Below are positions 15,132 through 62,783 of a stretch of DNA of 64,000 bases, piece after piece (the stretch's first letter is position 1; every line of letters begins with the position of its first letter). The stretch is from Chloroflexota bacterium. GTDB lineage: Bacteria; Chloroflexota; Limnocylindria; Limnocylindrales; CSP1-4. A model generated the notes under the pieces. The model made no database searches and had not been told where the DNA came from. It was given only the letters and a program-made list of their open reading frames with translations. A program made the position numbers and the translations under genes. The stretch is taken from the NCBI GenBank assembly GCA_034436555.1, contig DAOTUU010000033.1, positions 259,720 to 323,719 of the forward strand. Reading direction: 5' to 3'.

Positions 15132-15429
15132 GAGGTCCCCATGGTACGGGAGGTCGATGGGGCCCGATCGGCGACCCGGTGGTGGAAGTCGCGGCGGTCG
15201 AGCGTCGGAGACCGCCGCCGCACCGCGATCGAGTACCGTCGGCGATGGCGCGCAGCTCGGAGTCGCGGGCGCGCGTCCGCGATCAGGATGCGATCGTCGA
15301 GCGTGGCAACTCAGGGCGCACGGGATTCGTGGCGGGGTCGGCACTCCAACCCGCTGCGCAGCGAAGGTTGCGACGCTGCTCGACCCTGCGCCAAGGCATC
15401 CGTCCTATGTCACGGGGCGAGCCGAGCAA

Positions 15430-16113
15430 TCAGGGATAGTCGCCGGGCTGCCCCACCCTTCGCCGCGACACGGTAAGCCAGGCCAGGGCGAAAGAGGCCA
15501 CGAAGACTGCGCTCAACCTCCATAGAGTGTCGGGCCTCGATGTTTCGCGACCCCGGACGGTGGCCATAGCCGTCGGCGGTAGTTGGCCAGCGCCGACAAG
15601 AGACAGGGCATCCTGGAGGTCATGAACGTCCCACACGTCTGGATAGAGCCTTCGGGGTAGCTCGAACGCCACGAGTTCCACGCCATCCCCATCCAGCTCC
15701 CACGCGACCGTATTCCCGGCGTCAGGTGCCGCGAGATCAGCCGAGGAGACGAGGTACGTGCGACCTTCAACGAATGCGTTCAGCCCGTGGCAGGCGATGA
15801 CCTCGTATGTCACGGGGTCGTGCGCCACTGAACCGCGCACGACTCGCTCCACGCTCCAGCGGTGTTGCCGCGGGAAGGCGCCCGAATCATCCCCTTGGAA
15901 CGTGCCGATGAACGCATCGCCGGTGGCACTAGCGATGCGCATCGGCGCTCTGCGCTGGAGATCGCAGTCGGCGGCTACCGGCACCGAAAGGAGCATCACT
16001 CCGACCACCCCGCCCGCGACTGCTACCCACAGTGACCGAACGCTGCGAGGTGCGATCTTCACGAGCAGGCTACTGGGTGCACTGTGAGAGGCCTGAAACG
16101 CATACGTGGACAT
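15430..16113 (-). CDS. Hypothetical protein with an N-terminal signal/TM segment and a C-terminal TM anchor; lower GC than its surroundings
   Basis: ATG 16113 with GGGAG upstream (alternative GTG at 16062). KIAPRSVRSLWVAVAGGVVGVMLLSVPVAADCD signal-like. C-terminal LWRLSAVFVASFALAWLTV. The rest of ORF 15430..16800 overlaps the protease gene out of frame and was rejected. Confidence 0.5.
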   Translation of the reverse strand: MSTYAFQASHSAPSSLLVKIAPRSVRSLWVAVAGGVVGVMLLSVPVAADCDLQRRAPMRIASATGDAFIGTFQGDDSGAFPRQHRWSVERVVRGSVAHDPVTYEVIACHGLNAFVEGRTYLVSSADLAAPDAGNTVAWELDGDGVELVAFELPRRLYPDVWDVHDLQDALSLVGAGQLPPTAMATVRGRETSRPDTLWRLSAVFVASFALAWLTVSRRRVGQPGDYP

Positions 16114-17332
16114 CGAAGAGATCTCCCGTCCAGGATTGGTGGCGCGCATACCCCTCGTCCCCGGAGTGATCGCTCTCCCAGGGCTCGCAGTCATCGTCGT
16201 TCGGAATCGAGCGGCACCCAGACTGGATGCCGTAGATGGTGTGCCCGTAGAAGACAGGACCACCACTGTCACCGCCGGCCCACTGGTAGTAGCCCAACGC
16301 CTGTAGGTATAGCCAGACGTTTGTGGACTCGTTGAATGAGGCATACGTCGTGGTGATGACCTTGTCGGCGGCCCCGTAGCCGGTGGTCCTTCCGGACAGC
16401 CGGACTTTGGTCCCGGCGACTGCGCTTCCAACAGCGTCGATCGCCCACGCCTTCTCGTCGTTGCTGCGGTAGATCTTGTGTCCCTCCCACGCTTGGATGT
16501 CGCCCAAGCCGAGAATTGCGAAATCCGTGTAGCTGGTGGAGAAGTACGCATTCTTCTGCACACCTCCAAAGTCGTGGCCGTTCTGGTCGTGCCACTGGTC
16601 GCCGCCGGTGGCGTTGAAGCAGTGACCCGCGGACAGCATTCGAATCGCTCCGCCAGCTTTCCACGCGACAGCTCCCGTCGTGCAATCGTGGGAGCCGATG
16701 GTGAGCCCGCCTCTGGTCGGTGCTTGCCAGCAGTCATGTCGAGAGTTACATGCGGTATTCTGGGATCCTCTCCCCTCGACGACACGAACGAGACCGGCAT
16801 TGAACTCCGCCTCGGTCATCGCGCGGACAGCACCGATTTGGTTTCTGGGCGCCTCGACCTGGACGATGTTGTCCGCACCCCAGATCCCGAAGCCAACGAT
16901 GTCGGAGGCTCGCTGGTCCGACCGAGATGTCCAGTCCATCAACTTGCCCAGTACACCGTCAAGGGCTGCCTGGGAGTTTGGGACCACCTCGAACCTCGAC
17001 TCCACAAAGCCGGGAAGGGCGTCGCGAGCAGCGTCCCGCTGAGGCGCGGTAGTAGTCTCAAGAACCTGGATGACGACTCTGGGCGATGGTATGTCCTCGA
17101 TGTAGATACCGCCGTAGTCGCGCGGGGCAGACTCAATCAGCTCCACCAACGGACCGACTGAGTTCTGAACCTTTTCACGGAACAGCTCGTCATCTATCGA
17201 GCCGACCATCGTCTGAGCAATCCATTCTGCCGGTACCGCGGACGCGTCTCTGGCCCCCATGACCACGGATGCGCCGATCAGCAGGAGGCATGACGAAGCC
17301 GCGACCGCAAGTCCCGGCCGACGAGTTGCCAT
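16070..17332 (-). CDS. Secreted S1 family serine protease, alpha-lytic protease/streptogrisin-like, with N-terminal pro-region
   Basis: LSAGHC (His), GDSGGP (Ser), multiple Cys pairs. Signal peptide MATRRPGLAVAASSCLLLIGASVVMGARDASA. GGAGG 6 nt upstream of ATG 17332. GC3 is clearly lower than in flanking housekeeping genes. Confidence 0.8.
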   Translation of the reverse strand: MATRRPGLAVAASSCLLLIGASVVMGARDASAVPAEWIAQTMVGSIDDELFREKVQNSVGPLVELIESAPRDYGGIYIEDIPSPRVVIQVLETTTAPQRDAARDALPGFVESRFEVVPNSQAALDGVLGKLMDWTSRSDQRASDIVGFGIWGADNIVQVEAPRNQIGAVRAMTEAEFNAGLVRVVEGRGSQNTACNSRHDCWQAPTRGGLTIGSHDCTTGAVAWKAGGAIRMLSAGHCFNATGGDQWHDQNGHDFGGVQKNAYFSTSYTDFAILGLGDIQAWEGHKIYRSNDEKAWAIDAVGSAVAGTKVRLSGRTTGYGAADKVITTTYASFNESTNVWLYLQALGYYQWAGGDSGGPVFYGHTIYGIQSGCRSIPNDDDCEPWESDHSGDEGYARHQSWTGDLFDVHVCVSGLSQCTQ

Positions 17333-17705
17333 TGCTGCCCTCCTGTGTATGGAGCGTGCCCTCACGATTGGCTGCCCCGAACGATATCACCGTCGTTAAC
17401 GCACGGACAACGGCGAGGTCAAGGCGGCGCGGCAGGCAGTGGAGCACCGTTGGGACGCAGGTTGGCGTCGGGCGTGGCGCCTGCATGCAAAGAGGCCCAG
17501 GCGGCTCTCAGGTGACGGATCGGCTGCGATGAAATCTGCCGAGTCATCGACTTCGTTGCGGGGCGCACCTCGCATCACGGCCGATCCTGATTGGGTGCTG
17601 GTGAGCATCGATTCCTTGGCGCCTAGCGCTTCGGTCGCTCGCCGCAGCCGCCCTCCGGCGTCCCGTGTCGGAACCTGTCAAGTCGGATGAGACACGCGGT
17701 GTCGA

Positions 17706-18713
17706 TCAGGTCTGTGCAGGCGGCTCCTTCGGCGGGTTGATCCAGGCGGGTCCCGGCAGCCTCGGCGGCTCGGGGTGCCTGTTGACGAACCGCTCCGGAT
17801 GGGCGGCGTATGCGGCGTCCAGGACGAGGGCGCGCCGCTCGCGGACCAGGGTCGCTGTGCCGAGGTGGACCGAGGCGGGCGTGTGGTACCCGATGCCCGA
17901 GTGGCGATGCTCGTGGTTGTAGACGTCCATGAAGGGGCCCACGAACGCCCGCGCGTCCTCGATGCTCCCGAACCGCTCCGGGAAGCCGGGGCCGTGCTTG
18001 AGCGTCTTGAAGGCCGCCTCGCTGTAGGCGTTGTCGTTGGACACGCCCGGCCGACCGTGGGTGCGCCCGATGCGCAGGTCCGCCAGCAGCTGGGTCACGG
18101 GCTTGGAGGTCATCGGCGCGCCACGGTCGGCGTGGACCGTGAGGCGGCCGGGCTCGAAGGGTCCGTGGACCCGGACCAGGTCGGCGATCCAGCCGGCCAC
18201 GAGGTCGCCCCGCTCGTGGGGGACGACCATCCAGCCCGGGCAGTACCGGCTGTACAGGTCGAGCATCACGAACAGCCGGTACCAGACGCCCCTCCGGGGT
18301 CCGGGCAGCGCGGTCGCGTCGTAGGACCACACCCGGCACGGACCGTCGGCCACCAGCTCGGGGATCGTGCGGGGCGGATGGACCGCCTGGCGCCGGCGCT
18401 CGCGGACCCCGCCGTCGGCGCGCAGGATCCGGTACATCGTGGACTCGGACGCGAGGTACGTCCCCTCGTCGAGCAGCGTGGCCCACGCCTGGGCGGGCGC
18501 CCGGTCCACGAAGCGCTCCGAGCCGAGCACGTCCTTGACCGCCTCCCGCTCGTCCGGCGTCAGGGCGTTCGTCGGCGTCGGACGGGGGCGTGGCGGACCC
18601 TGGCGGGGCGGCAGGAGCCGGCGGTACCAGGTGGCGCGCGAGCGGCCCACCGCGGCACAGGCGCCCTTCGTGCCGACCAGCGGCAGGAGGTCGGCGAACG
18701 CGCTCTCGATCAC
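17706..18713 (-). CDS. IS3-family transposase OrfB (HTH_21 + DDE rve integrase core)
   Basis: CAAVGRSRATWYRRL (HTH_21), WSYDATAL (D), HADRGAPMTS (D), SNDNAYSEAAFKTLK (E). GTG 18713 with GGACGAGG upstream. The rest of ORF 17706..19490 overlaps the IS110 transposase gene and was rejected. Confidence 0.75.
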   Translation of the reverse strand: MIESAFADLLPLVGTKGACAAVGRSRATWYRRLLPPRQGPPRPRPTPTNALTPDEREAVKDVLGSERFVDRAPAQAWATLLDEGTYLASESTMYRILRADGGVRERRRQAVHPPRTIPELVADGPCRVWSYDATALPGPRRGVWYRLFVMLDLYSRYCPGWMVVPHERGDLVAGWIADLVRVHGPFEPGRLTVHADRGAPMTSKPVTQLLADLRIGRTHGRPGVSNDNAYSEAAFKTLKHGPGFPERFGSIEDARAFVGPFMDVYNHEHRHSGIGYHTPASVHLGTATLVRERRALVLDAAYAAHPERFVNRHPEPPRLPGPAWINPPKEPPAQT

Positions 18714-18779
18714 CGCGGCTGCCTCGTCCCCTCGTCGCCCTCGGCCAGCAGCCGCTCCAAGAGCTCCGATGCTAGCCTG

Positions 18780-20075
18780 AGAATCCCCAGGCTCGGCTCG
18801 ATCCCGATCAGGCGGCCTCGTCGAGGGTGACGTGGTAGCCAAGGGCCTCGAGGCGCTTGACCGTGCGCCGCACGGTCGCTGTCCGATCGCGCTGGTCGAA
18901 CCAGGTCGGGCCCAGCTCCTGGTACACGACACCGTCCCGGAGCAGGTGATACACGATGACCAGGATGGAGTGCCCGACCGCGACGGCCGCCCGGCCGGCG
19001 CCGCGCCGCGCGGCGATGCGCCGGTACTGGGCGGCGAGATAGGTGCCCTTCGTATGGGCGGCCGCGTGGGCCGCCTCGACGAGCGCGGTGCGGAGCCAGG
19101 CGTTGCCCGGGCCGGTCGCCCCGGATCGGCGCTTGCCGGCGCTCTCGTCGGTGCCAGGGCAGACCCGCGCCCAGGAGGCGAGGTGGGCTGCGGACGGGAA
19201 GCGGGACATGTCCGGGCCGATCTCCGCGAGGATGGCCTCAGCCGTCCGCAGCGCGACACCCGGGATGGAGTCGACGAGCGCCAGCGTGGCCCCGAAAGGG
19301 CGCATCCGCTCCGCCACCTCGGCCGACAGGGTCGCGATCTCAGCGTCCAGGAAGTCGATGTGCCGCAGCTGCGCCCCGAGCATCCGACGCTGGTGCTCGC
19401 CGAGCAGGCCGCGGAGCGCGGCCACGAGCCGGTCGTGCTTGGAGCGCAGTCGCCCGCGTGCGAGCCCCGCGAGCGCCTCGGCATCGTCACCCCCGGCCAC
19501 GATCGCCTCGAGCATCGCCCGCCCTGACACCCCCAGCAGGTCGGAGGCGACCGCGCCGAGCTTGATGTCGGCGCCCTCGAGGACCTTGTGCAGCCGCTGG
19601 ACCTCGCGGCCGCGCTCGTCGATCAGCCTGCGCCGGTGGCGCACGAGCTCGCGCTGGGCCCGGTCGGGGACGAAGCTGCCCCGCAGCAGGCCGTGGCGCA
19701 GCAGGTCGGCGACCCGCTCCGCGTCCCTCACGTCGGTCTTGCGTCCGGGCACCGCGCGCATGTGGCGGGCGTTCACGAGGAGCAGCTCGAGGCCGCCACC
19801 CTCGAGCAGGTTGTACACCGGCTTCCAGCAGACGCCGGTGCTCTCCATCGCGGCGTGGGTCACGCCCCGATCGGCGAGCCAGTCGGCCAGCTCGAGCAGG
19901 CCGGCGGTGACCGCACCGAACGTGCGCACCTCGCGGCCCTCGGGGGTGATGACGCAGGCGACCACCGTGTCCCGGTGGACGTCGAGCCCTGCGCAACGTT
20001 CGTGGAGCACCTCCATCGCGCACCTCCATCCGGTCTGGCGGTGGCGGGCTCGACGACCGGAGCGCGAGAATCTAG
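18780..20075 (-). mobile_element. IS110-family insertion sequence nested inside the IS3 element
   Basis: The transposase gene fills most of the element. Junctions carry TAGCCTG/AGAATC (18771-18784) and GAGAATC/TAGCCTG (20066-20079). Boundaries are approximate. Confidence 0.65.
18808..20016 (-). CDS. IS110-family transposase (DEDD N-terminal domain + C-terminal transposase_20 domain)
   Basis: MEVLHERCAGLDVHRDTVVACV (DEDD motif 1), ESTGVCWKP. C-terminal LRTALVEAAHAAAHTKGTYLAAQYRRIAARRG. GGAGGTG RBS 5 nt upstream of ATG 20016. Confidence 0.9.
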   Translation of the reverse strand: MEVLHERCAGLDVHRDTVVACVITPEGREVRTFGAVTAGLLELADWLADRGVTHAAMESTGVCWKPVYNLLEGGGLELLLVNARHMRAVPGRKTDVRDAERVADLLRHGLLRGSFVPDRAQRELVRHRRRLIDERGREVQRLHKVLEGADIKLGAVASDLLGVSGRAMLEAIVAGGDDAEALAGLARGRLRSKHDRLVAALRGLLGEHQRRMLGAQLRHIDFLDAEIATLSAEVAERMRPFGATLALVDSIPGVALRTAEAILAEIGPDMSRFPSAAHLASWARVCPGTDESAGKRRSGATGPGNAWLRTALVEAAHAAAHTKGTYLAAQYRRIAARRGAGRAAVAVGHSILVIVYHLLRDGVVYQELGPTWFDQRDRTATVRRTVKRLEALGYHVTLDEAA

Positions 20076-20181
20076 CCTGCGTGCTCCCCGGCGTGGGCCG
20101 GGGGCGACAATGGGTGGTGCCTGCGGTCGTCGGGGTCCAGACTTTTCACGGGCTGTCGGCACCAAGCGAGCACGGCCTCGA

Positions 20182-20568
20182 TCAACCCGCCACCGGCACC
20201 ATTCTCATCCACCGGGTGGTGCGGCGGAACGGCGCATCGATGACTTTTCCCTGGATGCCGATCACCAGGCGCGCCTTCGCCAGGTCCGCCTCGGCTCTCT
20301 CGGCCCTGCGGCGCAGTCGGGCCAGCTCGGCCTGCTCCGGGCTGGTCGCGCGAGGGCGGGGCCGCTGCCCCAGACCGGCGAGTGCGCCCGCGTCCCGGGC
20401 CCGGCGCCACTCCACGATGTGGGAGCTGTACAGGCCCTCGCGGCGCAGGAGCGAGCCCCGCGATCCGTCGGTCGGGGCGGCGTCGTACTCGGCCAGGATC
20501 GTCGCCTTGTACTCCGCGGTGAAGGTCCGGCGCACCGGGCGCTCGGGAGGGGTCGGGTCTCCGTCCAT
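20182..20568 (-). CDS. IS3-family transposase OrfA (HTH + leucine zipper)
   Basis: RRTFTAEYKATILAEY (IS3 OrfA HTH), LARLRRRAERAEADLAKARLVIGIQGK (zipper). Start uncertain (ATG at 20568, 20592 or 20613). Ends just after a GGGAAAA heptamer. Confidence 0.7.
   Translation of the reverse strand: MDGDPTPPERPVRRTFTAEYKATILAEYDAAPTDGSRGSLLRREGLYSSHIVEWRRARDAGALAGLGQRPRPRATSPEQAELARLRRRAERAEADLAKARLVIGIQGKVIDAPFRRTTRWMRMVPVAG
20245..20251 (-). other. Candidate -1 programmed ribosomal frameshift heptamer G GGA AAA (X XXY YYZ) at the 3' end of IS3 orfA
   Basis: Minus strand reads atc cag GGA AAA gtc in the orfA frame. The -1 frame continues open (…GLIEAVLAWCRQPVKSLDPDD…) until a TAG created at the IS110 junction. 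Confidence 0.45.
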
Positions 20569-20891
20569 GGCCGCATGATGCGCGCGCTCCATGGTCAGCG
20601 TCGTGATGCTCATGGTCGTCAGGCTGGTGTCCTTCTCGCCCTGTGGGATGACGGGTCGCTGCCCGTGTCTCACCCTATGCTGACAGACAGGGAAGCATGC
20701 AACCGCCGCTGGACAGAAGACTCCACCGCCAGCGTGTGCGATCGCGCCCTTCGCACGCTGCCCGCGCACCGCAAAGACCACGAGGCTGGCCTCGACCAGC
20801 GTCCGTCCCGGGCGCCGCCGAGGATTGCCGCGTCGCGCCGCTCCGCGCTGGTCGGGTGTGCCCCTTCGCGGCTTCGAACAGGTCGCCCCTG

Positions 20892-21155
20892 ATGGCACTA
20901 CATCATGCACAATGCAGCTATGGTGCATCGTGTGAGAACACCGTCGACCTTTCGCCCGCTGCGCGTGCATTGGAAGTCGCCGCAGCGCGGGGCATGTCGC
21001 TCTCGGCGACGATCGCGGACCTGACGTCACTGGGTCTGGAGCGCATGCGCGAACCGGTGACGCTGTCCATCGATGCGCAGTCTGGGTTCCCGGTGATGCG
21101 GTTCGGGTGGCGCATCACGAACGAGGATATCAGGGCCGCCCTGGACGACGAGTGA
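20892..21155 (+). CDS. Small ribbon-helix-helix-like protein, possible orphan antitoxin/regulator; low GC3
   Basis: VDLSPAARALEVAAARGMSLSATIADLTSLGLERMRE resembles RHH/CopG. Codon usage (gca cta cat cat gca caa tgc agc tat) is unlike the host genes. A weak call. Confidence 0.3.
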   Translation: MALHHAQCSYGASCENTVDLSPAARALEVAAARGMSLSATIADLTSLGLERMREPVTLSIDAQSGFPVMRFGWRITNEDIRAALDDE

Positions 21156-21300
21156 CCATGTGGTTCGCGGTCGGACGCCAAGATAGCGACGATCGATGCC
21201 GGTTTCGCACAGGCGCTGCCGGATCTGACATTCCTGGTCCCCGAGTGACAGCGGTGTGCGAACGGCGCGAGGAACGGCAGCCCGGACCGGAACGTGGCGC

Positions 21301-22413
21301 TCAGGTGGGTTCGGGGTCGTCAGGATCGCCGGTCGGGACGCCTTCGGCGGTCGCCGCGGACCGGCCATGCGGGTCGCCTGGGCGATGGACGTCGCGATAC
21401 CGCCAGCGCCGGTAGCGGTCACGGGCGGTCGCCCCCAGCCCCAGGACACGGGAGCCGACGGGAGCCAGCGTCAGGCGCCACGCTCCCACGTAGTCGACCT
21501 CGTGCCCGCCGAAGCCGCTCTTGAACTGCTCGATGCCCTCGCGCGGCAGGCCCCACAGGTCGTACTGCGTGTAGCCAGCCGCCTTCATGCGCCGCAGCGC
21601 CTCCCACTTGAGGAGGTAGTTCGCGCGACGCCGGGCGCCCTTCTCGGTGGTGCCGCCGTACAGGTCCGCGACCCGCCGGCCGCAGCCGACGAGGAGCACC
21701 GCCGCCACCGCCTCGCCCGTGTCCACGGCCTCCGCGAACAGCAGGTGGGCCTTGCCGCGCGGCGCCAGGTGGGTCCACATCTCCCGGAACGCCTCCTCGC
21801 TCCGGGGCGCGATGCCGGCCCGCTGCAGTGCCTCCGCGTGGATCGCGTGCAGCTCGCCGATGCGTGCCGCGTCGCCCGCGACCACGCACACTCCGAGCCG
21901 CTCCGACTTGGACACCGACTGGCGAGTCTTGCGGTGCATGCCCGCCAGGATCGCTGGCTCGTCCTGGGCCAGGTCGATGATGCGCGTGCGGTCGGGCTGG
22001 ACGTGGTCGGTGCGCCGCCATCCTGCGCGGATCAGCTCGCGCGCCAGCCGCCCGTCCCCCGCGTCCGCCTCGGGCTCCATCACGATCGTCGCTAGCCGGT
22101 GACGCCGCCCCGCCTCGCGCAGGCGCCGGGTGACGGCCAAGACCTGCGCCCGGCTCAGCGTCCCGTCCGCGGTGACGGGTCCGCGCGCGAGGTAGCCCAG
22201 CCCCCAGGGCAGGCCACGCGGACGCTGCACCAGCACCTGCGCCCCCACGAGGCCGCCGTCCGGGTCCGCGGCGACGCGGAACGAGGACCAGCCATTCGGC
22301 CGCTTGACCGCCGCCCAGGCGCTCGACTGGAGGTGGCAGGGCGCCGCGGACGCCGCCAGGAACGCCTCCCAGGCCACCTCGTCGACCTCCAGCCGGGCGG
22401 CGGCGTCGGTCAC
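21301..22413 (-). CDS. FemAB-family peptidoglycan aminoacyltransferase (tRNA-dependent lipid II peptidyltransferase-like)
   Basis: GTG 22413 overlaps the hisS stop (GTGA). WEAFLAASAAPCHLQSSAWAAVKRPNGW, YLLKWEALRRMKAAGYTQYDLWGLPREGIEQFKSGFGGHEV (Fem C-terminal signature). 370 aa. Confidence 0.8.
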   Translation of the reverse strand: MTDAAARLEVDEVAWEAFLAASAAPCHLQSSAWAAVKRPNGWSSFRVAADPDGGLVGAQVLVQRPRGLPWGLGYLARGPVTADGTLSRAQVLAVTRRLREAGRRHRLATIVMEPEADAGDGRLARELIRAGWRRTDHVQPDRTRIIDLAQDEPAILAGMHRKTRQSVSKSERLGVCVVAGDAARIGELHAIHAEALQRAGIAPRSEEAFREMWTHLAPRGKAHLLFAEAVDTGEAVAAVLLVGCGRRVADLYGGTTEKGARRRANYLLKWEALRRMKAAGYTQYDLWGLPREGIEQFKSGFGGHEVDYVGAWRLTLAPVGSRVLGLGATARDRYRRWRYRDVHRPGDPHGRSAATAEGVPTGDPDDPEPT

Positions 22414-23714
22414 GCGTCGCCGGTCCCGTGCTTGTGCTGCGCCTCGCCGCGCTGGAGGTCGCGGACAAGGTCGTCCAGGTCCACCCGGCGCTGGGTCCCT
22501 GCCTGGAGGTCCTTCACCTGGACCTGGCCCGCGGCGAGCTCATCTCCGCAGATGACCGCGAAGTGGGCGCCCTCCCGCGAGGCTCCCTCGAGCTGCTTGC
22601 CCAGCTTGCGCGGCGCCAGGTCCGCCCGCGCGGCGAGACCCCCGGCGCGCAGGAGCGTGGCGACCCGCAGGCGCGGCACGGTGTCCGCCGGATCGGCGCC
22701 CACCACCACGATGGCGGCGCGGGGTGGTGCGATCGGCTCCGCGCCCTGCTCCGCGAGCGCCAGCACCACCCGGTCAAGGCCCAGCCCGAAGCCGATGCCC
22801 GGCGTGGGCCGGCCGCCCAGCAGCTCCACCAGGCCGTCGTAGCGACCGCCGCCGCCGAGCGCCTGCTGCTGGCCCTCTGCCCCGGCGCGGTAGAACTCGA
22901 ACGCGGTGCGGGTGTAGTAGTCGAGGCCGCGCACCAGGCGGGGCGCGGGTCGGGGGCTGACGCCCAGCGCCGCGAGGTGCGCCCGGACGCCGTCATGGTG
23001 CGCCCGACAGGCGTCGCACAGGTGGTCCGTGATGGTGGGCGCGTCCGCGATGAGCGACTGCATCCGCTCGTCCTTGGAGTCCAGGAGCCGCAGCGGCGCC
23101 GTCTCCAGGCGCTGCCGCTCAAGCTCCGGCAGGTCATCCGCGAACCGTCGGAAGTGCGCCTGGAGCAGGGCCACGTACGCCGGGCGGCAGGCGCCATCGC
23201 CGATGGAGTTGAGCAGCACCTCGACACCCGACACGCCCGCCACGGCGTAGAACCGCAGCCCCAGCTCGACGATCTCGGCGTCGATGCCCGGGCCCGGGTC
23301 GCCGATCGCCTCCACGTCGAACTGCCAGAACTGGCGATACCGTCCCGCCTGGGGCCGGTCGTAGCGGAACATCGGCCCGGTCAGGGTCAGCTTCACGGGC
23401 TGGGGCAGCGTCTGCATGCCGTGCTGGATGTATGCCCGCACGAGTCCCGCGGTCGGCTCCGGACGGAGCGCCCAGCGCTCGCGCTCCTGGTCGCCGCGGC
23501 CGGCCTGGACCCGGAACAGCTCCTTCTCCACCACGTCCGTCACGGCGCCCACGCCCCGCTCGAACACCTCGCTCTGCTCGAACAGGGGCGTCTCGATGGG
23601 CTGGTACCCGTAGCGCGTCGCGAGGTCGCGGGCGATCGTCTCGAGACGCAGGAAGGCGGCCCGTTCGGGCGGCAGCAGGTCGCGGGTGCCCCGCGGGGCT
23701 TGGTACCTCGGCAC
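22410..23714 (-). CDS. hisS: Histidyl-tRNA synthetase
   Basis: Class II motifs 1/2/3 (RYQAPRGTRDLLP, FRYDRPQAGRYRQFWQ, GGGRYDGL). HisA/HisB anticodon-binding C-terminus. 434 aa. Confidence 0.9.
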   Translation of the reverse strand: MPRYQAPRGTRDLLPPERAAFLRLETIARDLATRYGYQPIETPLFEQSEVFERGVGAVTDVVEKELFRVQAGRGDQERERWALRPEPTAGLVRAYIQHGMQTLPQPVKLTLTGPMFRYDRPQAGRYRQFWQFDVEAIGDPGPGIDAEIVELGLRFYAVAGVSGVEVLLNSIGDGACRPAYVALLQAHFRRFADDLPELERQRLETAPLRLLDSKDERMQSLIADAPTITDHLCDACRAHHDGVRAHLAALGVSPRPAPRLVRGLDYYTRTAFEFYRAGAEGQQQALGGGGRYDGLVELLGGRPTPGIGFGLGLDRVVLALAEQGAEPIAPPRAAIVVVGADPADTVPRLRVATLLRAGGLAARADLAPRKLGKQLEGASREGAHFAVICGDELAAGQVQVKDLQAGTQRRVDLDDLVRDLQRGEAQHKHGTGDA

Positions 23715-23751: not shown

Positions 23752-24573
23752 ATGTCCGTGTCCGCGAACGACCGCCCGGCTGCCTCCTCCGGCGACCGCC
23801 TGGGCTATCTCATCGGCGTCTTCGGGTGCGCCTTCTCGATCACCGCGCTGTGGCTGTGCATGCGCGCCGTGTTGGACATCGGCGGCTCCTGCGGGTCGGG
23901 TGGGCCCTACGAGATCGCCGTGCCCTGCCCGCCAGGGGTCGACCTGCTGCTCGTGCTGGCGTTCCCGCTGGGGTTCGCCTCGGTCGGGCTGATGGTCTGG
24001 AAGGGAGCCCGCCTGGGCGCCGCCTGGGTGGCCCTGGCGGGGCTGGCGTGGCCCGCGGTGTTCCTGTCGCTGGGCTGGAACTTCATCGAGTACGGGCTCT
24101 GGCCGCCGGTCACCGGGGACCCCGGGCTGGGATTCCTCATCCCCGGGGTGGTCTTCCTGGTGATGGGCGGTGTGCCGCTCTGGTTCTGGTGGATCGGCCG
24201 CGGCGATGCCCCGGCCGTGCCGGGATCGCGAGGGACGCGTGCCCGGTCGGATCTGCGCCAGCTGCGCGACCTGCGGGATGCGATGGCGCACGCGGCGGTC
24301 GACGCGCGCCGCAGGGGTGGCCCGACGGCCGACCGGCTGACCGTGCGCCAGGCGATGTCCCTGCCGGGGTCGTCGGACTCGGCCCCGCCGCCATCCCCGG
24401 CGGTCGCGGTCGCGCCGGCCCCCGACGCCGGCGGCGAGGGGGACCGCAGCGAGGCGTTCGTGGCCCAGCTGGAACGCCTCGCGGTGCTCCACCGCGCGGG
24501 CGACCTGTCGCTGCTCGAGTTCCAGGCCGCCAAGGCCGCGCTCCTCGCGAACGCGGGCGGGGACCCGCGATGA
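23752..24573 (+). CDS. Membrane protein with C-terminal SHOCT domain
   Basis: Four or more TM helices, then LERLAVLHRAGDLSLLEFQAAKAALL (SHOCT-like short C-terminal motif). Confidence 0.6.
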   Translation: MSVSANDRPAASSGDRLGYLIGVFGCAFSITALWLCMRAVLDIGGSCGSGGPYEIAVPCPPGVDLLLVLAFPLGFASVGLMVWKGARLGAAWVALAGLAWPAVFLSLGWNFIEYGLWPPVTGDPGLGFLIPGVVFLVMGGVPLWFWWIGRGDAPAVPGSRGTRARSDLRQLRDLRDAMAHAAVDARRRGGPTADRLTVRQAMSLPGSSDSAPPPSPAVAVAPAPDAGGEGDRSEAFVAQLERLAVLHRAGDLSLLEFQAAKAALLANAGGDPR

Positions 24574-24759: not shown

Positions 24760-25710
24760 TCAGCCGTCGACGTCGGCGATCCTGATGAACCGGCCGGCCT
24801 CGGGCGCCCACAGCACCGACGTGATGCGGGTGTCCGCAGGGACGTTGTAGCCCACGTATCCGGAGCTGCGGTCGTCCGGCGCGAGCACCTGGGCCTGGAG
24901 GTCCGGCACGATGTCCTCGGCGGGACGCGGCACACGGCTGGGCCGGATGAAGCGCCCGTTCTCGTCCTGGAGGACGATCTGCCAGGGATCGAAGCCCAGC
25001 TGCTGGTCGATGGCCGCCTGGAACACCACGGTCGCGAGGACATAGCGCGTTCCCTCGGCCGGGGGCTGCGCCGGATCGAACTCGGTGTAGGGATCGCGGA
25101 TCGCCCGCACCGTGACCGTCCCGTGCGAGACGCCCGCGGCGTCGGCGACCTCCACCTCCGTGCCCACTGGCCTGGGCTCGGCCTGGGTGAACGTGCTGAG
25201 CGTGATCATCCGCTCGCTCTCCGGCAGGTACAGCACCGCATCGCTCACGGCGCCCGTGGGCACCTTGAAGCCGATGGCACCCGACAGCCGGTCACCGGGC
25301 CCCATGGTCTGGCTCTGGAAGTCGGGCAGCGTCACCGGCTGGACACGCGGCAGGCTGGAGGACCATCGAAGGTAGCCCTCCGCGTCCTGGAGCACGATGG
25401 CGTAGGGGTCCGCCCAGAACGGCTGGTCGGCCGCGGCCTCGAACACCACGTCCAGCAGCACGTAGCGCTCACCCTCGGCGGGTGGGTAGGTCGGGTCGAA
25501 CTCCGTGTACGGATCGGCGACCGACCGGATGGTGACGGTGCCGTGGGTGACGCCATCGGCGTCGACGTACGGCGTGCCGCCCTCGGGCGATGTGACGGGC
25601 GGCGGCGAGTCGGCCGGTGATGGCGACGCATCCTGCGCCATGACCGGCAGGCCGCCCGCCAGCATGACGGTCGCCATGACGATGGAGCTGAACGACGATC
25701 GGTCGCGCAT
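24760..25710 (-). CDS. Secreted protein with two tandem DUF4352-like domains
   Basis: GAGGGGAG RBS before ATG 25710. Signal peptide MRDRSSFSSIVMATVMLAGGLPVMAQD. Two homologous halves (GTVTIRSVADPYTEFDPTYPPAEGERYVLLDVVFEAA / GTVTVRAIRDPYTEFDPAQPPAEGTRYVLATVVFQAA). Confidence 0.65.
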   Translation of the reverse strand: MRDRSSFSSIVMATVMLAGGLPVMAQDASPSPADSPPPVTSPEGGTPYVDADGVTHGTVTIRSVADPYTEFDPTYPPAEGERYVLLDVVFEAAADQPFWADPYAIVLQDAEGYLRWSSSLPRVQPVTLPDFQSQTMGPGDRLSGAIGFKVPTGAVSDAVLYLPESERMITLSTFTQAEPRPVGTEVEVADAAGVSHGTVTVRAIRDPYTEFDPAQPPAEGTRYVLATVVFQAAIDQQLGFDPWQIVLQDENGRFIRPSRVPRPAEDIVPDLQAQVLAPDDRSSGYVGYNVPADTRITSVLWAPEAGRFIRIADVDG

Positions 25711-25860
25711 CGGTGCGTCTCCCCTCATGTCCGTGCGATGGCCGCCCCAACGACCCGCGGCCAGCCTACACCAGGCGGAGGCTGCATCGCGAGAGCGTTC
25801 CGGCCCTGCCGCCGATGGGCCGATCGGCATCGCCCGGGGAGCGCGCCCGCCGGCCCGCGG

Positions 25861-28179
25861 TCAGGCCTGGTCGCGCTGGACCGAGATGATGTCGCGCAGC
25901 TGCTCCAGGCGTGACATGACCTTGGCGAGCTGGGCCACGGAGGTCACCTGGAGGGTGGCCTGGATCGTGGCGCGGTGGCCGTCCTGGACCATGACGTGCG
26001 CCGACACGATGCTGATCTTGTGCTCCGCGACGATGCTCGTGACATCCGCGAGGAGCCCGGTGCGGTCATAGCCGTCGAGGCGGACGGCGATGGGGTACGT
26101 CTGCTGGAGCGCCGCCTCCCACTCCACGTCGATGAGTCGCTCGATGTCCCGCTCGTTGACGATCGTGGCGCAGGTCGCGAGGTGCACGGTGACGCCGCGG
26201 CCGCGCGAGATGAAGCCCGTGATGGGATCGCCGGGAATCGGGTGGCAGCACTTCGCGAAGCGCACGAGCAGGTCGCCCACGCCCTTGACCCGGACACCGC
26301 CGGTGCGCGGCGGCGGTGGCGGCGCGACCTGGGGCAGCACCGCCTGGTTGGCATCATCGGCGACGCCCAGGCGCATGACCACGGTCTGTGCGGAGATCGC
26401 GCCGTAGCCGATGGCGGCGAAGAAGTCGTCCAGGCTCCCGAATCGGTCGCGATCCACCTGCTCCTGGAGCAGGTCCTGGGGGATCCGGTCGATGGACGTG
26501 CGGGCCAGGCGGTGCAGCTCCCGGTCCAGCGCGGCCTTGCCGTGGGCGATGTTCTCATCCCGCTGCTGGCGCTTGAACCATTGCCGGATCTTCTCCTTGG
26601 CATGGCTCGTGGTGACCACGCCGAGCCAGTCGCGCGACGGGCCGTGGGCGGCGCGCGTGGTCACGATCTCCACGATGTCGCCGTTCTTGAGCCGGTAGTC
26701 CAGAGCCACGAGCCGGTTGTTCACCTTCGCGCCGATGCAGGCATGGCCCACGTCGGTATGGATGCGGTATGCGAAGTCCAGGGGGGTGGCGCCGGCTGGC
26801 AGATCCTTGACGTCTCCCCGGGGCGTGAACACGAACACCTGGTCGCGGAAGATGTCGACCTTGACGCCCTCGACGAACTCCGTCGCGTCCGACACCTCGC
26901 GCTGCCAGTCCACCAGCTGGCGCAGCCAGGCGAGCTTCGCGTCGTAGGCGCGGTCGGAGCGCGACCCCTCCTTGTAGCGCCAGTGCGCCGCGACGCCCAT
27001 CTCCGACACGCGGTGCATGTCGTACGTCCGGATCTGGACCTCCAGCGGCTTTCCGTCGAGCGCGACCACGGCCGTGTGGAGCGACTGATAGCCGTTCGTC
27101 TTGGGCACCGCGATGTAGTCGTCGAACTGGCCCGGGATCGGGCGCCACAGGGTGTGGACGACGCCCAGGGCACCGTAGCAGTCCCGGGTGTCCTCCACGA
27201 GCACCCGCAGCGCGTGCAGGTCGTAGATCTCCTCGAGGCGCGCCTGCTTGCGCTGCATCTTCCGGTGGATGCTGTAGATGTGCTTGGGCCGGCCCGAGAT
27301 GTCCGCGTGGACGCCGGCATCCACGAGCGCCGCGTCCAGCACCACCATGGCGCGCTTGACGTACGCCTCGCGGAACCGGCGGTGGCTCTCGAGCTGCCGG
27401 GCCAGCTGGCGGTAGGCCTCGGGATCGAGGATCTTGAACGCGAGGTCCTCCAGCTCCCACTTGATCTGCCAGATGCCCAGGCGCTCCGCGAGGGGCGCGT
27501 AGATCTCCATCGTCTGGCGCGCGATGCGCTGCTGCTTCTCGATGGGCAATGCCGCGAGGGTGCGCATGTTGTGGAGCCGGTCGGCAAGCTTGATGAGGAC
27601 GACGCGGATGTCCTCCGCCATCGCCAGGAACATCTTGCGGATGTTCTCCGCCTGCTGCTCCTCGTGCGTTCGGGCGCTGAACTTGGACAGCTTGGTGACG
27701 CCGTCCACCAGGCGGGCGACCTCGGCGCCGAACCGCTCCTCCACGTCCGCGAGCGAGGCGTCCGTGTCCTCCGGCACGTCGTGGAGCAGCGCCGCCTGGA
27801 CGGTCACCACGTCCAGACCCAGCTCCGCGAGCGTCTGCGCCACCGCCAGCGGATGCACGATGTACTGCTCCCCGCTGGCCCGGCGCTGCGGCGCATGGGC
27901 CTCGAGCGCGAACCGGTACGCGGCCTCCACCTCGGCCGGATCCGCCGCGGGATAGCGCTCGTGGATCTCCGACTCGAGCCGCTTCTCCGCGGCATCGAGC
28001 TGCGCCTGCGAGGTGAGCGCCGGGGGTGAACCCTGCCCGTCCGGTCGTGCCGCAGCGAGAGGGGTCTGCATCCCGGCGGGCGTCCCGGCGATGGCCGCGG
28101 CGGGGGCCGCGGCGGCGCGCTCCGACTCGCCGCCGCGAGTGTCGAGGAGGTCGGCCGCAGTCGGGTCGCTGATGGACAT
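25861..28179 (-). CDS. relA: Bifunctional (p)ppGpp synthetase/hydrolase RelA/SpoT (Rel)
   Basis: HD domain (HPLAVAQTLAELGLDVVTVQAALLHDVPEDT), synthetase domain (GRPKHIYSIHRKM, ALRVLV), TGS and ACT regions. Start ATG at 28179 (MSISDPTAADLLD), about 773 aa. Confidence 0.9.
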   Translation of the reverse strand: MSISDPTAADLLDTRGGESERAAAAPAAAIAGTPAGMQTPLAAARPDGQGSPPALTSQAQLDAAEKRLESEIHERYPAADPAEVEAAYRFALEAHAPQRRASGEQYIVHPLAVAQTLAELGLDVVTVQAALLHDVPEDTDASLADVEERFGAEVARLVDGVTKLSKFSARTHEEQQAENIRKMFLAMAEDIRVVLIKLADRLHNMRTLAALPIEKQQRIARQTMEIYAPLAERLGIWQIKWELEDLAFKILDPEAYRQLARQLESHRRFREAYVKRAMVVLDAALVDAGVHADISGRPKHIYSIHRKMQRKQARLEEIYDLHALRVLVEDTRDCYGALGVVHTLWRPIPGQFDDYIAVPKTNGYQSLHTAVVALDGKPLEVQIRTYDMHRVSEMGVAAHWRYKEGSRSDRAYDAKLAWLRQLVDWQREVSDATEFVEGVKVDIFRDQVFVFTPRGDVKDLPAGATPLDFAYRIHTDVGHACIGAKVNNRLVALDYRLKNGDIVEIVTTRAAHGPSRDWLGVVTTSHAKEKIRQWFKRQQRDENIAHGKAALDRELHRLARTSIDRIPQDLLQEQVDRDRFGSLDDFFAAIGYGAISAQTVVMRLGVADDANQAVLPQVAPPPPPRTGGVRVKGVGDLLVRFAKCCHPIPGDPITGFISRGRGVTVHLATCATIVNERDIERLIDVEWEAALQQTYPIAVRLDGYDRTGLLADVTSIVAEHKISIVSAHVMVQDGHRATIQATLQVTSVAQLAKVMSRLEQLRDIISVQRDQA

Positions 28180-28217
28180 GGGCCGTCCAGTGTACCGTCT
28201 GCCGTTGGAGGCCCCCG

Positions 28218-29552
28218 ATGATGACCCGACCGCAGATGCCCGCGCGCCCCCGCCACGCACCGCTCGTGATGCTGCTGGTCGCCCTGCTGCTGGGGGGCGT
28301 CGGCGGCATGGCGGCTCGGACGCCCGCCGCATCCGCGGGCGGTCGCGTCCACGTCGGCCCGCTCGCGCTGGCCCAGGCGTCCCCGTCGGCGTCGCCGGGT
28401 CCCCTCGCCTCCCCGCTCGCATCGATCGTGCCGGCGCCGTTCGATGCGGCGCTCGCCGAGGCGCTCCAGCGGGTCGTCGACGCGTCGTGGAGGCGCATCC
28501 CGGCACCCGGCATCTCGGTGGCGGTGCGATTGGCCGACGGGCGCATCTGGACCGGCGTGGCCGGCGACCGCCGCCTGTCGCCGCCCGAGCCGGTCGACCC
28601 GGACACCGTGTTCGCCATCGCGAGCATCACCAAGACGTTCGTGACCGCGGTCGTGCTCCAGCTCGTCGATGAGGGGCGGCTCTCCCTGGATGACCCGCTG
28701 GGCCGCTTCCTGCCCCGCTTCCCGCGCGCCCGGGACATCACCATCCGACAGCTCCTGGGTCACACCAGCGGCGTGGCCGACTACTTCGGGAGCCCGAGCT
28801 ATGCGAGCAGGGTGTTCAGCCGTCCGGGCCGCACCTGGACCCGGGCCCAGATCCTGCGCCTCGTGGGCGCGTCCTACTGCGACCCTGGCGACTGCTTCCG
28901 CTACTCCAACACGAACTTCGTGCTGCTCGGCCTGGTGGTCGAACAGGTGACCGGGAAGGACCTGTCGACGGTCATCCGGCGGCGCCTGCTCGATCCGCTG
29001 GGCCTCGACCGCACCGTGTTCCAGCCCGACGAGCGCACGCCGCGAGACGCCGCGCACGGACACCTGTGGGGCGGCGGTGACACGTTCTACGACCAGACGG
29101 GCAGCAGCCGGGTGCTGCCGCATCGCTCGGCATCCACGGTGGCCTGGGCGGCGGGCGCCATGGCTTCCACGGCCGGCGACCTGGCGCGCTGGGCGGCGGC
29201 GCTGTACGGCGGCGACGTGCTGTCGGATGCGGCACGAGCGGAGATGCTCACCTTCCGCCGCAGGGATGCGTACGGGCTGGGGACGCGCACCCGCCAGTTC
29301 GGCGGACACCGCGCTATCGGCCATCTGGGAGGCATCCGGGGCTACGAGCTCGCGATGTGGTACTTCCCGGACGCTGGCGCGTCCGTGGTCGTGCTCACGA
29401 ACCGCGGCCTGTTCAGCACCGACCGGACCGTGAAGCTGCTCACGAAGGCGCTGTTCCGCCACCTCGACGGGGATTCGACGCTCTCCCCGGCGCCATCACC
29501 GAGCGCCTCCGGCGCCCCGCTCCCCTCCCCGTCGGCCGCGCCCCCGGCCTGA
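28218..29552 (+). CDS. Serine hydrolase of the beta-lactamase / penicillin-binding protein fold (class C-like, possible DD-peptidase)
   Basis: SITKTF (SxxK), YSNTNF (YxN), HLGGIRG near the C-terminus. Signal peptide and Ser/Pro-rich tail. Confidence 0.8.
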   Translation: MMTRPQMPARPRHAPLVMLLVALLLGGVGGMAARTPAASAGGRVHVGPLALAQASPSASPGPLASPLASIVPAPFDAALAEALQRVVDASWRRIPAPGISVAVRLADGRIWTGVAGDRRLSPPEPVDPDTVFAIASITKTFVTAVVLQLVDEGRLSLDDPLGRFLPRFPRARDITIRQLLGHTSGVADYFGSPSYASRVFSRPGRTWTRAQILRLVGASYCDPGDCFRYSNTNFVLLGLVVEQVTGKDLSTVIRRRLLDPLGLDRTVFQPDERTPRDAAHGHLWGGGDTFYDQTGSSRVLPHRSASTVAWAAGAMASTAGDLARWAAALYGGDVLSDAARAEMLTFRRRDAYGLGTRTRQFGGHRAIGHLGGIRGYELAMWYFPDAGASVVVLTNRGLFSTDRTVKLLTKALFRHLDGDSTLSPAPSPSASGAPLPSPSAAPPA

Positions 29553-40610: not shown

Positions 40611-40698
40611 CGCGGCGGAGGATAGCACGGGGTCCTCGCCGGACCGCCCCCGGGCGGGGTGCCCGCCCGGGGGCCCACGCACGCTCCCCGAGTCGCGC

Positions 40699-41076
40699 TC
40701 AGGCCTGGCGCATCCGCTGCAGCAGCTCCTCGGCGTGCGCCGCCTCCTCGGCATCGTCGACATCCGACAGGTCGTCGTCCGGCACCGCGAGCGATCGACC
40801 CGCGTCGGATTCATCGTCCCGCTCCAGCGGCTCGCCCGCGGGCAGCGCCGGGAGGTCGGAGGCCGCCATCGCCGCCTGCGGGATCTCGATGAAGCGGATG
40901 TGGACGAGCGGATAGAGGAACCACGACTCCGTGTGGTCGATGAACCCGGGCTTTCGTCCGTCGAGGAACCGCAGGTTCGTGACGGTGATGCACACGTCCG
41001 CCGCGGTGGGCAGCGCGCGCAGGTCGCACACCAGCGGCTGTTCCGAGGCGAAGTGAAGGACGGCTCCCTGGATCAT
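40699..41076 (-). CDS. Hypothetical protein with acidic C-terminal tail
   Basis: 125 aa, balanced composition, then DDDLSDVDDAEEAAHAEELLQRMRQA. Lies between dprA and topA. Confidence 0.45.
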   Translation of the reverse strand: MIQGAVLHFASEQPLVCDLRALPTAADVCITVTNLRFLDGRKPGFIDHTESWFLYPLVHIRFIEIPQAAMAASDLPALPAGEPLERDDESDAGRSLAVPDDDLSDVDDAEEAAHAEELLQRMRQA

Positions 41077-62708: not shown

Positions 62709-62783
62709 TGGTAGCCGAGGGCGGATTTGAACCACCGACCAAGGGCTTATGAGTCCCCTGCTCTACCACTGAGCTACTCGGCC
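62709..62783 (-). tRNA. tRNA with CAU anticodon (tRNA-Met; the elongator vs tRNA-Ile2 lysidine type is not resolved), CCA encoded
   Basis: Minus strand GGCCGAGTAGCTCAGTGGTAGAGCAGGGGACTCATAAGCCCTTGGTCGGTGGTTCAAATCCGCCCTCGGCTACCA. 7-bp acceptor stem, D-arm GCTC/GAGC, anticodon loop CTCATAA, T-arm GGTGG-TTCAAAT-CCGCC. Ends +/-1. Confidence 0.8.

Follow-up and report, generated by a model that had tools for sequence, protein, structure and literature searches.

The gene that follows hisS in an uncultured Chloroflexota bacterium, here called femH, probably encodes an active FemX-like transferase that acts on a peptidoglycan precursor and was relocated from a murJ–murE cluster, while its linkage to hisS does not name the amino acid that it transfers; we hold this reading as a whole with fair confidence. 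FemH would most likely add one residue to the side chain of the precursor and thereby build an interpeptide branch, acting alongside the four other Fem domains of a nearby murJ-fem1/2-fem3-murE-fem4 cluster. The window considered here, that is, the whole stretch of DNA that was analysed, comprises 64,000 nt of the assembly GCA_034436555.1 (Limnocylindrales; CSP1-4; contig DAOTUU010000033.1, positions 259,720 to 323,719 of the forward strand), and all positions below are counted from its first letter.

The hisS–femH junction

Both genes lie on the minus strand. The first, hisS (22410–23714; 434 aa, GTG start), encodes histidine–tRNA ligase, scores 411 bits against TIGR00442 (cut-off 286.75) with further matches to PF13393 and the HGTP anticodon-binding domain PF03129, and its product is 68–86 % identical to its counterparts across at least 80 Limnocylindrales loci. 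The second, femH (21301–22413; 370 aa), encodes a member of the FemABX family of tandem-GNAT aminoacyl-tRNA transferases, with 78 bits against PF02388 (FemAB; cut-off 24) and 62.8 bits against PF13480 (cut-off 22). These scores bear out the gene calls of an earlier note on this DNA, which had named a hisS and a FemAB-family gene, and GC3 values of 0.92 (hisS) and 0.87 (femH) in a window of 72.7 % GC likewise indicate that both genes are real.

Read on the minus strand, the junction runs ...GAC GCG TGA, and the GTGA at 22413–22410 is common to both genes, its TGA being the stop of hisS and its GTG the start of femH, which are separate ORFs in different frames. The overlap, also described in the earlier note, is real, and an NTGA overlap is kept in 11 of the 13 complete type-A loci (type A denotes loci with a femH-clade Fem between hisS and aspS, type B those with a second Fem clade there). 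Since it is conserved across species-level genomes, sequence comparison indicates that the overlap is more than chance. In kind it is unremarkable, because NTGA overlaps also join six other gene pairs in the window, namely murJ/fem1 (35589), fem2/fem3 (33421), fem3/murE (32327), murE/fem4 (30738), and two further pairs.

As judged from the homologue alignment, the GTG within the overlap is a credible start of femH, because the sole other candidate, an in-frame GTG at 22377 that lies 32 nt past the hisS stop, would cost the conserved residues 5–12, including L8, which is present in at least 90 % of the aligned sequences. It could conceivably be this second GTG from which translation starts, in which case the overlap would be an annotation artefact, coupling would not occur, and femH would merely lie next to hisS; a strong Shine–Dalgarno sequence is indeed not evident upstream of GTGA, and in one relative, L002, the annotation of the homologue places its start at an ATG further downstream. 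However, tblastn alignments begin at residues 4–8, four loci (L010, L015, L024, and L034) have no start besides NTGA upstream of the conserved N-terminus, and the NTGA is retained in the 11 loci despite varying surrounding sequence. We regard an artefact as unlikely.

With the overlap both real and conserved, co-transcription of hisS and femH is a reasonable assumption from the geometry of the genes, and translational coupling of femH to hisS is probable. Upstream, the hisS start is separated by 37 nt from a divergent, plus-strand gene of unknown function (23752–24573; GC3 0.92), which is conserved, with counterparts in the relatives L001 and L002, and has no Pfam or NCBIfam match. A scan for the sigma-70 consensus returned no promoter, and a terminator scan yielded one weak terminator-like site, which lies inside the IS region described below.

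Fold and family of FemH

The AF2 model of FemH (pLDDT 92.6, pTM 0.88) adopts the tandem GNAT fold, and its top Foldseek matches are 6snr, 1ne9/4ii9, and 1lrz at a probability of 1.00 and TM scores of 0.70–0.78 (E values of 1.9e-25 for FemX, 6snr, and of ~1e-21 for FemX_Wv, 1ne9/4ii9, with FemA, 1lrz, also matched). The core of the protein comprises residues 1–340, followed by about 30 disordered C-terminal residues. In a profile alignment with 1ne9, the FemH residues K37, R198, R204, F297, and K298, all of them invariant in 49 homologues, align with K36, R205, R211, F304, and K305 of FemX_Wv, among which we take K36 and R211 to be the Lys and Arg that bind the precursor (UDP-MurNAc-pentapeptide) and F304–K305 to be a Phe–Lys pair with a catalytic role. 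The PDB titles of FemX_Wv mutants (K36M, 1xe4; Y254F, 1xf8) show just K36 of these residues as a target of mutagenesis.

FemX of W. viridescens, a UDP-MurNAc-pentapeptide:L-alanine transferase (1NE9, 4II9), resembles FemH in its fold, with two GNAT domains and no coiled-coil arm (TM on the target 0.78), and is of similar size (335 aa as compared to ~340 core residues). However, the two proteins are only 22 % identical, FemH has Glu113 and Asp250 where FemX_Wv has Asp108 and Tyr254, and femH is set in a hisS–aspS operon of a Chloroflexota genome. The best match is FemX/FmhB of S. aureus, a lipid II:glycine glycyltransferase (6SNR; phmmer 1.2e-11, profile 2.7e-37, in addition to the Foldseek value above), which differs by a 60-residue coiled-coil arm at residues 235–297; in the profile alignment the FemH query runs continuously over residues 240–297, which PMC8280954 assigns to the coiled coil, and the identity to the S. 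aureus proteins is 13–18 %. Taken from sequence and model, FemH is predicted to be an aminoacyl-tRNA transferase of FemX-like, tandem-GNAT type that lacks a coiled coil.

Identity of FemH to characterised Fem enzymes amounts to only 18–22 %, and every NCBIfam equivalog cut-off lies far above its scores, for example 500 as compared to 32.8 bits for NF047883 (W. viridescens type, L-Ala donor). Since no equivalog cut-off is approached and identity to the relatives in the PDB does not exceed 22 %, calling the donor from sequence was tried and rejected.

The hisS–aspS slot and the murJ–murE clusters

Downstream of femH, about 6.2 kb of foreign DNA, made up of IS elements nested in one another and of low-GC sequence, separate it from aspS (aspartate–tRNA ligase; minus strand, 13281 to ~15150; PF00152 with 344 bits, GAD and OB-fold domains). 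The aspS ORF is open to 15344, its true start lying near 15130–15150 according to the blastn match to the closest relative, L001, the aspS of which is 87 % identical in nucleotides from 15150 downwards. The inserted DNA (15350–21300) was delimited by Pfam matches, its composition profile, and the lack of a blastn counterpart in L001. Pfam matches place in it the orfA of an IS3-type element (20182–21030), an IS110-type transposase that splits this element (18808–20016), an rve integrase part of an ORF (17706–19490), and, together with the composition profile, a protease-like ORF (16070–17365) in a segment of 61–65 % GC. No convincing pair of terminal repeats was found at the IS and island boundaries. 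L001 has an EamA gene between fem and aspS, and tblastn of the window gave no remnant matching it. In many relatives (L005, L007, L010, L014, L017, L024, L039, L047, and others) the fem–aspS gap is at most 100 nt; together with the absence of the insert from L001, this agrees with the earlier proposal that aspS was ancestrally the next gene downstream before the island arrived.

On the other side of hisS, beyond the divergent gene, lies a (p)ppGpp synthetase/hydrolase gene of the relA/spoT family (25861–28506, minus strand; HD_4, RelA_SpoT, TGS, and ACT domains), and almost every related locus likewise has relA on the upstream side of hisS. Bacillus and other Firmicutes have hisS and aspS arranged in this way too, with relA as the gene that precedes the pair. 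There, hisS–aspS has been described as an operon (PMC4342826) that is regulated by a T-box (PMC7927825), but in Bacillus no Fem lies between the two synthetase genes, whereas the Limnocylindrales locus gave no detectable T-box leader.

Some 80 Limnocylindrales loci were compared, 78 of which are non-redundant and were counted for the content of the slot. hisS occupies its position in relA-hisS-aspS in all 80 relatives, whether a Fem is present or not. Type A accounts for 15 of the 78 loci and type B for 16, and the remaining 47 have relA-hisS-aspS without a Fem, with hisS and aspS less than 170 nt apart in 18 of these; relatives in which the two synthetase genes adjoin without a Fem, which the earlier note had named as evidence against a meaningful coupling, are thus common. 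Altogether, the hisS–aspS gap spans 45 to 8680 nt and holds cargo including EamA, PIN, AAA_16, and IS genes. Within type A, the Fem proteins have diverged to ~50 % identity while the order hisS-fem-aspS and the NTGA overlap persist. The type-B clade, which is 27 % identical to type A, fills this gap in the sister lineage, and the two group together in 0 of 50 bootstraps of an NJ tree. As chance relocation alone would hardly predict two unrelated Fem clades in one slot, this hints that the position is selected for or that recombination is unusually frequent there.

FemH is one of five Fem-type cell-wall enzymes or domains in the window, the four others being located 7–14 kb away in a cluster on the same strand. 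It begins with murJ (lipid II flippase; 35589–37151; PF03023, 251 bits), followed by fem1-fem2 (33421–35592), a single ORF that lacks an internal stop and encodes a fused protein of 723 aa with two Fem domains and NF047883-like matches. Next come fem3 (32327–33424; PF02388, 105.6 bits), which is 46 % identical to the femH clade, murE (UDP-MurNAc-tripeptide synthetase; 30738–32330; TIGR01085 with 469.5 bits, cut-off 257.3), and fem4 (29569–30741), which overlaps murE by 4 nt and is recognised by PF13480 (63.5 bits), PF02388 (48.7 bits), and a phmmer domain match. Several paralogues are likewise present in S. aureus (the lipid II:glycine glycyltransferases FemX/FmhB, FemA, and FemB; 6SNR, 1LRZ), which suggests stepwise bridge synthesis in both organisms. 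The S. aureus fem genes, unlike femH, lie outside synthetase operons.

In other genomes, members of the femH clade sit in murJ-fem-fem-fem-murE clusters away from hisS (L006, L052, and L088), and a bootstrapped NJ analysis groups the clade with the third Fem of those in L006 and L052 in 49 of 50 replicates. The nearest representative of the 50 %-identity clusters, P0121 (49 % identical), is the third Fem of the murJ–murE cluster in L088, and P0130 (47 % identical to FemH) lies directly 3’ of murJ. Because the NJ analysis used plain distances and rooted the trees at the midpoint, it is mainly these outgroup contexts that indicate a move from cluster to slot. They suggest that femH probably left the cluster by a short-range relocation into the variable gap of an ancient relA-hisS-aspS unit, and that this probably happened in the ancestor of one Limnocylindrales lineage. 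femH would then have joined the hisS transcript, and ribosomes terminating on hisS would translate it by way of the NTGA overlap, which may provide steady, growth-linked expression.

Donor, acceptor, and implications

The position of its closest relatives between murJ and murE indirectly supports a peptidoglycan precursor as the presumed acceptor of FemH. Some Fem-fold enzymes do aminoacylate other acceptors, and FemH might accordingly be imagined to act on some other kind of acceptor, for instance a protein, a lipid, a small-molecule natural product, or a compound related to exopolysaccharides: the acceptor is not legible from sequence, Foldseek also retrieved MprF domains and two peptide synthases of natural-product pathways, Sba18 and Sbb17, and FemH weakly resembles TIGR03019, the FemAB family associated with PEP-CTERM. 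The latter score (40.7 bits) is, however, far under the cut-off of 260, the best fold matches are peptidoglycan Fem enzymes, the residues that correspond to K36 and R211 of FemX_Wv are invariant, and biosynthetic-cluster genes were not found nearby. Together with the murJ–murE setting of the relatives, this renders a non-peptidoglycan acceptor decidedly improbable.

As for the donor, FemH most likely uses Gly, L-Ala, or L-Ser. The earlier note had asked whether the linkage to hisS and aspS points to histidine or aspartate instead. On that view, the Fem would take L-His or L-Asp from the respective charged tRNA, His-tRNA(His) or Asp-tRNA(Asp), and transfer it to the peptidoglycan precursor, while the operon would keep the output of the synthetase in step with this extra demand. 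In favour of this, one may cite the persistence of hisS-fem-aspS and of NTGA in spite of such divergence among the Fem proteins of the clade, the two unrelated Fem clades in one slot, and precedents in which a synthetase linked to a GNAT-fold transferase names the donor. Mycobacterial LysX, a LysRS–MprF fusion, and the VlmL/VlmA pair are such synthetase-coupled transferases. Another is the fungal ErdS, a fusion of AspRS and DUF2156 that uses Asp-tRNA (PMC7334510). Like the femH locus, these systems physically link a synthetase to a GNAT-fold consumer of aminoacyl-tRNA, but their synthetases are fused or are duplicated and dedicated, and the link is obligatory, whereas the femH slot is free of Fem in most relatives and hisS and aspS stand in their housekeeping position.

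Further observations argue in the same direction. In the window, neither a fusion nor a dedicated hisS paralogue was found, and the survey shows that co-occurrence is not obligatory. No HisRS–Fem fusion was found among the best 150 of 7384 library matches, and a Pfam check of long library proteins revealed Fem–Fem tandems or an added UbiE methyltransferase, GNAT acetyltransferase, or metallo-beta-lactamase fold, and no synthetase. Between positions 12000 and 30000, Rfam gave no match at E ≤ 1 to a T-box or other leader RNA through which the operon could respond to the charging of tRNA. Nor were any dedicated or unusual tRNA genes found near hisS, the sole tRNA gene in the window being a tRNA-Met (62709–62783). 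This differs from S. aureus, where a T-box of glyS, together with tRNA-Gly species dedicated to the purpose, is reported to coordinate the Gly supply (PMC4574755, PMC7826273); the femH locus showed no counterpart to either.

What is established for Fem enzymes is the use of Gly- and L-aminoacyl-tRNAs, D-Asp and D-Glu being added by ATP-grasp ligases (PMC2655667). Among cultured Chloroflexota, the Ktedonobacteria have a peptidoglycan in which Orn, Ala, Glu, Ser, Gly, and beta-Ala occur (PMC3236041, PMC12453558). For cell walls of Limnocylindria, a literature search found nothing beyond genome statistics. Histidine has reportedly been seen in some Ktedonobacteria cell walls, which we do not count as evidence, and we know of no His or L-Asp bridge residue that is made by a Fem enzyme.

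Overall, the notion that the hisS linkage tells which amino acid the Fem transfers was not supported: 47 of the 78 loci do without the Fem, the same clade operates from murJ–murE clusters in other genomes, four more Fem domains lie in such a cluster nearby, the cargo of the hisS–aspS gap varies, overlaps of 4 nt are routine in the operons of this genome, and hisS keeps its housekeeping position with or without a Fem, being neither a dedicated paralogue nor part of a fusion. A His or Asp donor is thus very improbable, and we are just as sceptical of substrate channelling, by which type-A and perhaps type-B Fem proteins would put L-His or L-Asp on the stem, with the repeated capture of different Fem clades by the slot as a signature of selection for the coupling. 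If a His or Asp donor were true, Limnocylindria would possess a bridge with histidine or L-aspartate that is made in a tRNA-dependent manner, a donor specificity new for Fem enzymes, and more would be possible, for peptidoglycan bridges and Fem enzymes alike, than the chemistry known so far.

The preferred reading, a FemX-like enzyme with an ordinary donor that was relocated next to hisS, would add little to mechanism if true. It cautions against inferring the donor from a neighbouring housekeeping synthetase, which says little about it, and it portrays the ancient hisS–aspS gap as a landing site for Fem genes. Limnocylindria would moreover possess an unusually rich and mobile Fem set, each locus encoding two to five domains, in part as fusions, which implies that their peptidoglycan is branched and that its bridges differ from lineage to lineage. 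Such knowledge may be useful for predicting the cell-wall chemistry of Chloroflexota or when donors of Fem enzymes are guessed from genomic context.

Gene order around hisS and aspS

The window has a G+C content of 72.7 %, and gene calling relied on third-position GC and on matches to families, not on ORF length. The minus strand carries topA (38178-40814), murJ (35589-37151), a fused fem1-fem2 reading frame (33421-35592), fem3 (32327-33424), murE (30738-32330; TIGR01085, 469.5 bits), fem4 (29569-30741), relA (25861-28506), a DUF4352 gene (24760-25830), hisS (22410-23714), the FemAB-family gene femH (21301-22413) and, beyond some 6.2 kb of IS elements and low-GC DNA, aspS (13281 to about 15150). 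On the plus strand, a serine beta-lactamase/PBP-like gene (PF00144, 28218-29552) lies between fem4 and relA and, being placed alike in the related loci L001 and L004, seems to be part of the cell-wall neighborhood. A conserved gene of 273 residues (23752-24573, plus strand, GC3 0.92) has no match in Pfam or NCBIfam, but counterparts in L001 and L002; it diverges from hisS across a gap of 37 nt, which, together with a TATCCT motif lying 7 nt before the GTG of hisS, suggests a very short or absent hisS 5' leader. The aspS reading frame (13281-15344, minus strand) stays open for about 65-70 codons upstream of the point where homologues begin to align; as alignments to all of these begin only at query residue ~72, translation probably starts around 15130-15150, with the extra N-terminal stretch an artefact of high GC.

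The overlap of the hisS stop with the Fem start, described in the earlier note, is borne out by the sequence, with GTGA at 22413-22410 common to both genes, and is retained in relatives. No start codon precedes the GTG at 22413 in the open frame of femH, and translation from the next one, at 22377, would cost residues 5-12, a stretch that is conserved across 49 homologues (L8 is kept in at least 90 % of them and W15 is invariant). An NTGA overlap is kept in 11 of the 13 complete loci of the femH clade, and in L010 (ATGA), L015 (TTGA), L024 and L034 (both GTGA) the overlapping codon is the sole start before the conserved N-terminus. Given this conservation, it is reasonable to infer that femH may be translationally coupled to hisS. 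The overlap is nevertheless no special feature, because the same 4-nt arrangement joins six other gene pairs of the window (murJ/fem1, fem2/fem3, fem3/murE, murE/fem4 and two more).

Downstream of femH, nested insertion sequences occupy 17706-21030. An IS3-type element, with an HTH_Tnp_1 orfA (20182-21030) and an rve integrase domain inside the ORF 17706-19490, seems to have been interrupted by a transposase gene of the IS110 family (18808-20016); the nested elements showed no clear terminal repeats. The segment adjoining aspS (15500-17500; 61-65 % GC vs 73 % in the genome) is probably of foreign origin, acquired together with the IS elements or beside them, and its ORF at 16070-17365 (minus strand) shows a signal-peptide-like N-terminus, a GDSGGP serine-protease motif and a weak Trypsin_2 match (E 0.012).

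The FemH protein

FemH matches Pfam FemAB with 78 bits (cut-off 24) as well as Acetyltransf_6, but is not an equivalog of any curated family (NF047883, 32.8 bits vs a cut-off of 500). Its AlphaFold2 model, made from 49 homologues, has a mean pLDDT of 92.6 and a disordered tail (352-370). The best PDB match of the model is Staphylococcus aureus FemX (6snr, E 1.9e-25); FemX of W. viridescens (FemX_Wv; 1ne9, 4ii9 and others; E ~1e-21, TM 0.78 on the target) and FemA (1lrz) are also among the best, followed by the tRNA-dependent peptide synthases Sba18 and Sbb17 and MprF domains. In a profile alignment to 1ne9, the invariant K37, R198, R204 and F297-K298 align with K36, R205, R211 and F304-K305 of FemX_Wv, residues to which work on that enzyme ascribes functional roles; Glu113 takes the place of its Asp108. 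Unlike S. aureus FemX, FemH has no counterpart of residues 240-297, the coiled-coil arm (PMC8280954), over which the alignment passes, and this predicts a compact, FemX_Wv-like enzyme. FemH is a new, uncharacterised member of the FemABX family and most likely a peptidoglycan branch transferase.

The hisS-aspS gap in relatives and the origin of femH

The homologues come from Chloroflexota MAGs. Scanning species-representative genomes with HisS yielded 80 loci (HisS 68-80 % identical), nearly all labeled Candidatus Limnocylindrales/Limnocylindria or unclassified Chloroflexota; Limnocylindria are essentially uncultured and have small genomes of ~69 % GC (PMC10608941). When HisS, Fem, AspS and RelA were run by tblastn against all loci, relA-hisS-aspS emerged as the constant core. 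Over 78 informative non-redundant loci, three states of the gap were counted: a femH orthologue (50-71 % identical) in 15 (type A), another Fem in the same place (27-30 % identical to femH) in 16 (type B), and no Fem-family gene in 47, with the synthetase genes less than 170 nt apart in 18 of these. Relatives of the last kind make up the first half of the counter-evidence that the earlier note had named. The type B Fem (L013, L014, L017-L023, L027, L029, L030, L032, L033, L035, L038) begins about 13-160 nt past hisS, usually at an ATG that follows the hisS stop by 19 nt.

The distance between hisS and aspS ranges from 45 to 8680 nt, and the cargo differs by genome: an EamA transporter, PIN-domain genes, an opposite-strand AAA_16 gene, unknown genes or, in the window, nested IS elements and foreign DNA. 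That an island separates femH from aspS is supported by the closest relative, L001 (nucleotide identity 80 % over hisS plus fem, 87 % over aspS), which has EamA in place of the 6.2-kb insert.

In a neighbor-joining tree of 103 Fem domains from the window and the loci (50 bootstrap replicates), type A formed a clade in 50/50 replicates and grouped with the third Fem of murJ-fem-fem-fem-murE clusters (L006, L052) in 49/50. Type B was a separate clade (50/50), grouped with the third Fem of another such cluster (L051; 50/50), and the two types never grouped together (0/50). An HMMER search run exhaustively over 1.84 billion cluster representatives returned 7384 relatives; P0121 (49 % identical), the nearest that is not part of the clade, again holds the third Fem position, in murJ-fem-fem-fem-murE-x-relA (L088), and P0130 (47 %) directly follows murJ. 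In related genomes, the murJ/murE cluster lies only 2-10 kb upstream of relA-hisS. The simplest history is a short-range relocation, in which one Fem gene left the cell-wall cluster for the hisS-aspS gap, and the place of femH in the operon is best read as hitch-hiking after this putative move. On the HisS tree, the main type A and type B groups are sister lineages with the no-Fem genomes L008, L009, L028 and L031 nested among them, which look like secondary losses, and a large no-Fem clade is separate. Type A loci L047, L005 and L007 branch elsewhere, which suggests, on a weakly rooted tree, that type A may be the older occupant of the slot.

Linkage, donor and Fem diversity

The earlier note had asked which amino acid this Fem transfers, His or Asp being new as donors. 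Conservation of the hisS-fem-aspS operon speaks for a functional tie, and so, more strikingly, does the occupation of the same slot by two unrelated Fem clades. However, hisS and aspS are housekeeping copies that keep their position with or without a Fem, most relatives lack the linkage, the femH clade also works from a murJ-murE cluster elsewhere, and the slot takes unrelated cargo. Neither a T-box or other RNA element (with just 37 nt between hisS and its divergent neighbor) nor an extra tRNA gene nearby was found. Among the 150 best of the 7384 representatives there was no HisRS-Fem fusion; the long ones checked were Fem-Fem tandems or carried unrelated extra domains, for example, a UbiE methyltransferase. 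Where a synthetase is known to identify the donor used by a GNAT-fold aminoacyl-tRNA transferase, the synthetase is fused or a dedicated paralogue, as with LysX and VlmL/VlmA. ErdS, an AspRS-DUF2156 fusion, is another such case (PMC7334510). According to the literature, Fem enzymes transfer Gly and L-amino acids, D-Asp and D-Glu being added by ATP-grasp ligases (PMC2655667), and in another class of Chloroflexota, cultured members have peptidoglycan of the Orn type that contains Gly, Ser, Ala and beta-Ala (PMC3236041, PMC12453558). The evidence against a donor meaning of the linkage is broader than that for it and, taken with these published donors and wall compositions, makes His or Asp very improbable. 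What deserves to be kept in mind is that this one slot has captured Fem genes of two clades, the single observation for which the above account offers no explanation.

The fem1-fem2 frame (33421-35592, minus strand) is a single ORF of 723 aa, uninterrupted by any stop, that encodes two complete Fem domains; we know of no earlier description of such fused double Fem transferases. The in-frame arrangement recurs in L026 and L015, and representatives of 700-790 aa with at least two Fem matches include P0124, P0125, P0127, P0128, P0144, P0208 and P0215. Other architectures, unrelated to the hisS-femH arrangement, are an N-terminal UbiE/COQ5-type methyltransferase fused to a Fem domain (P0182, P0220; ~610 aa) and a Fem domain joined at its C-terminal side to a domain of the metallo-beta-lactamase fold (P0227). 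Around murJ/murE, two to five Fem genes occur in an order that varies among close relatives (window 29569-37151, L006, L012, L013, L026, L051, L088); fem3, for example, is extra in the window and missing from L012, L026 and L015. This variation in number and order implies a fast-changing bridge composition within Limnocylindrales.
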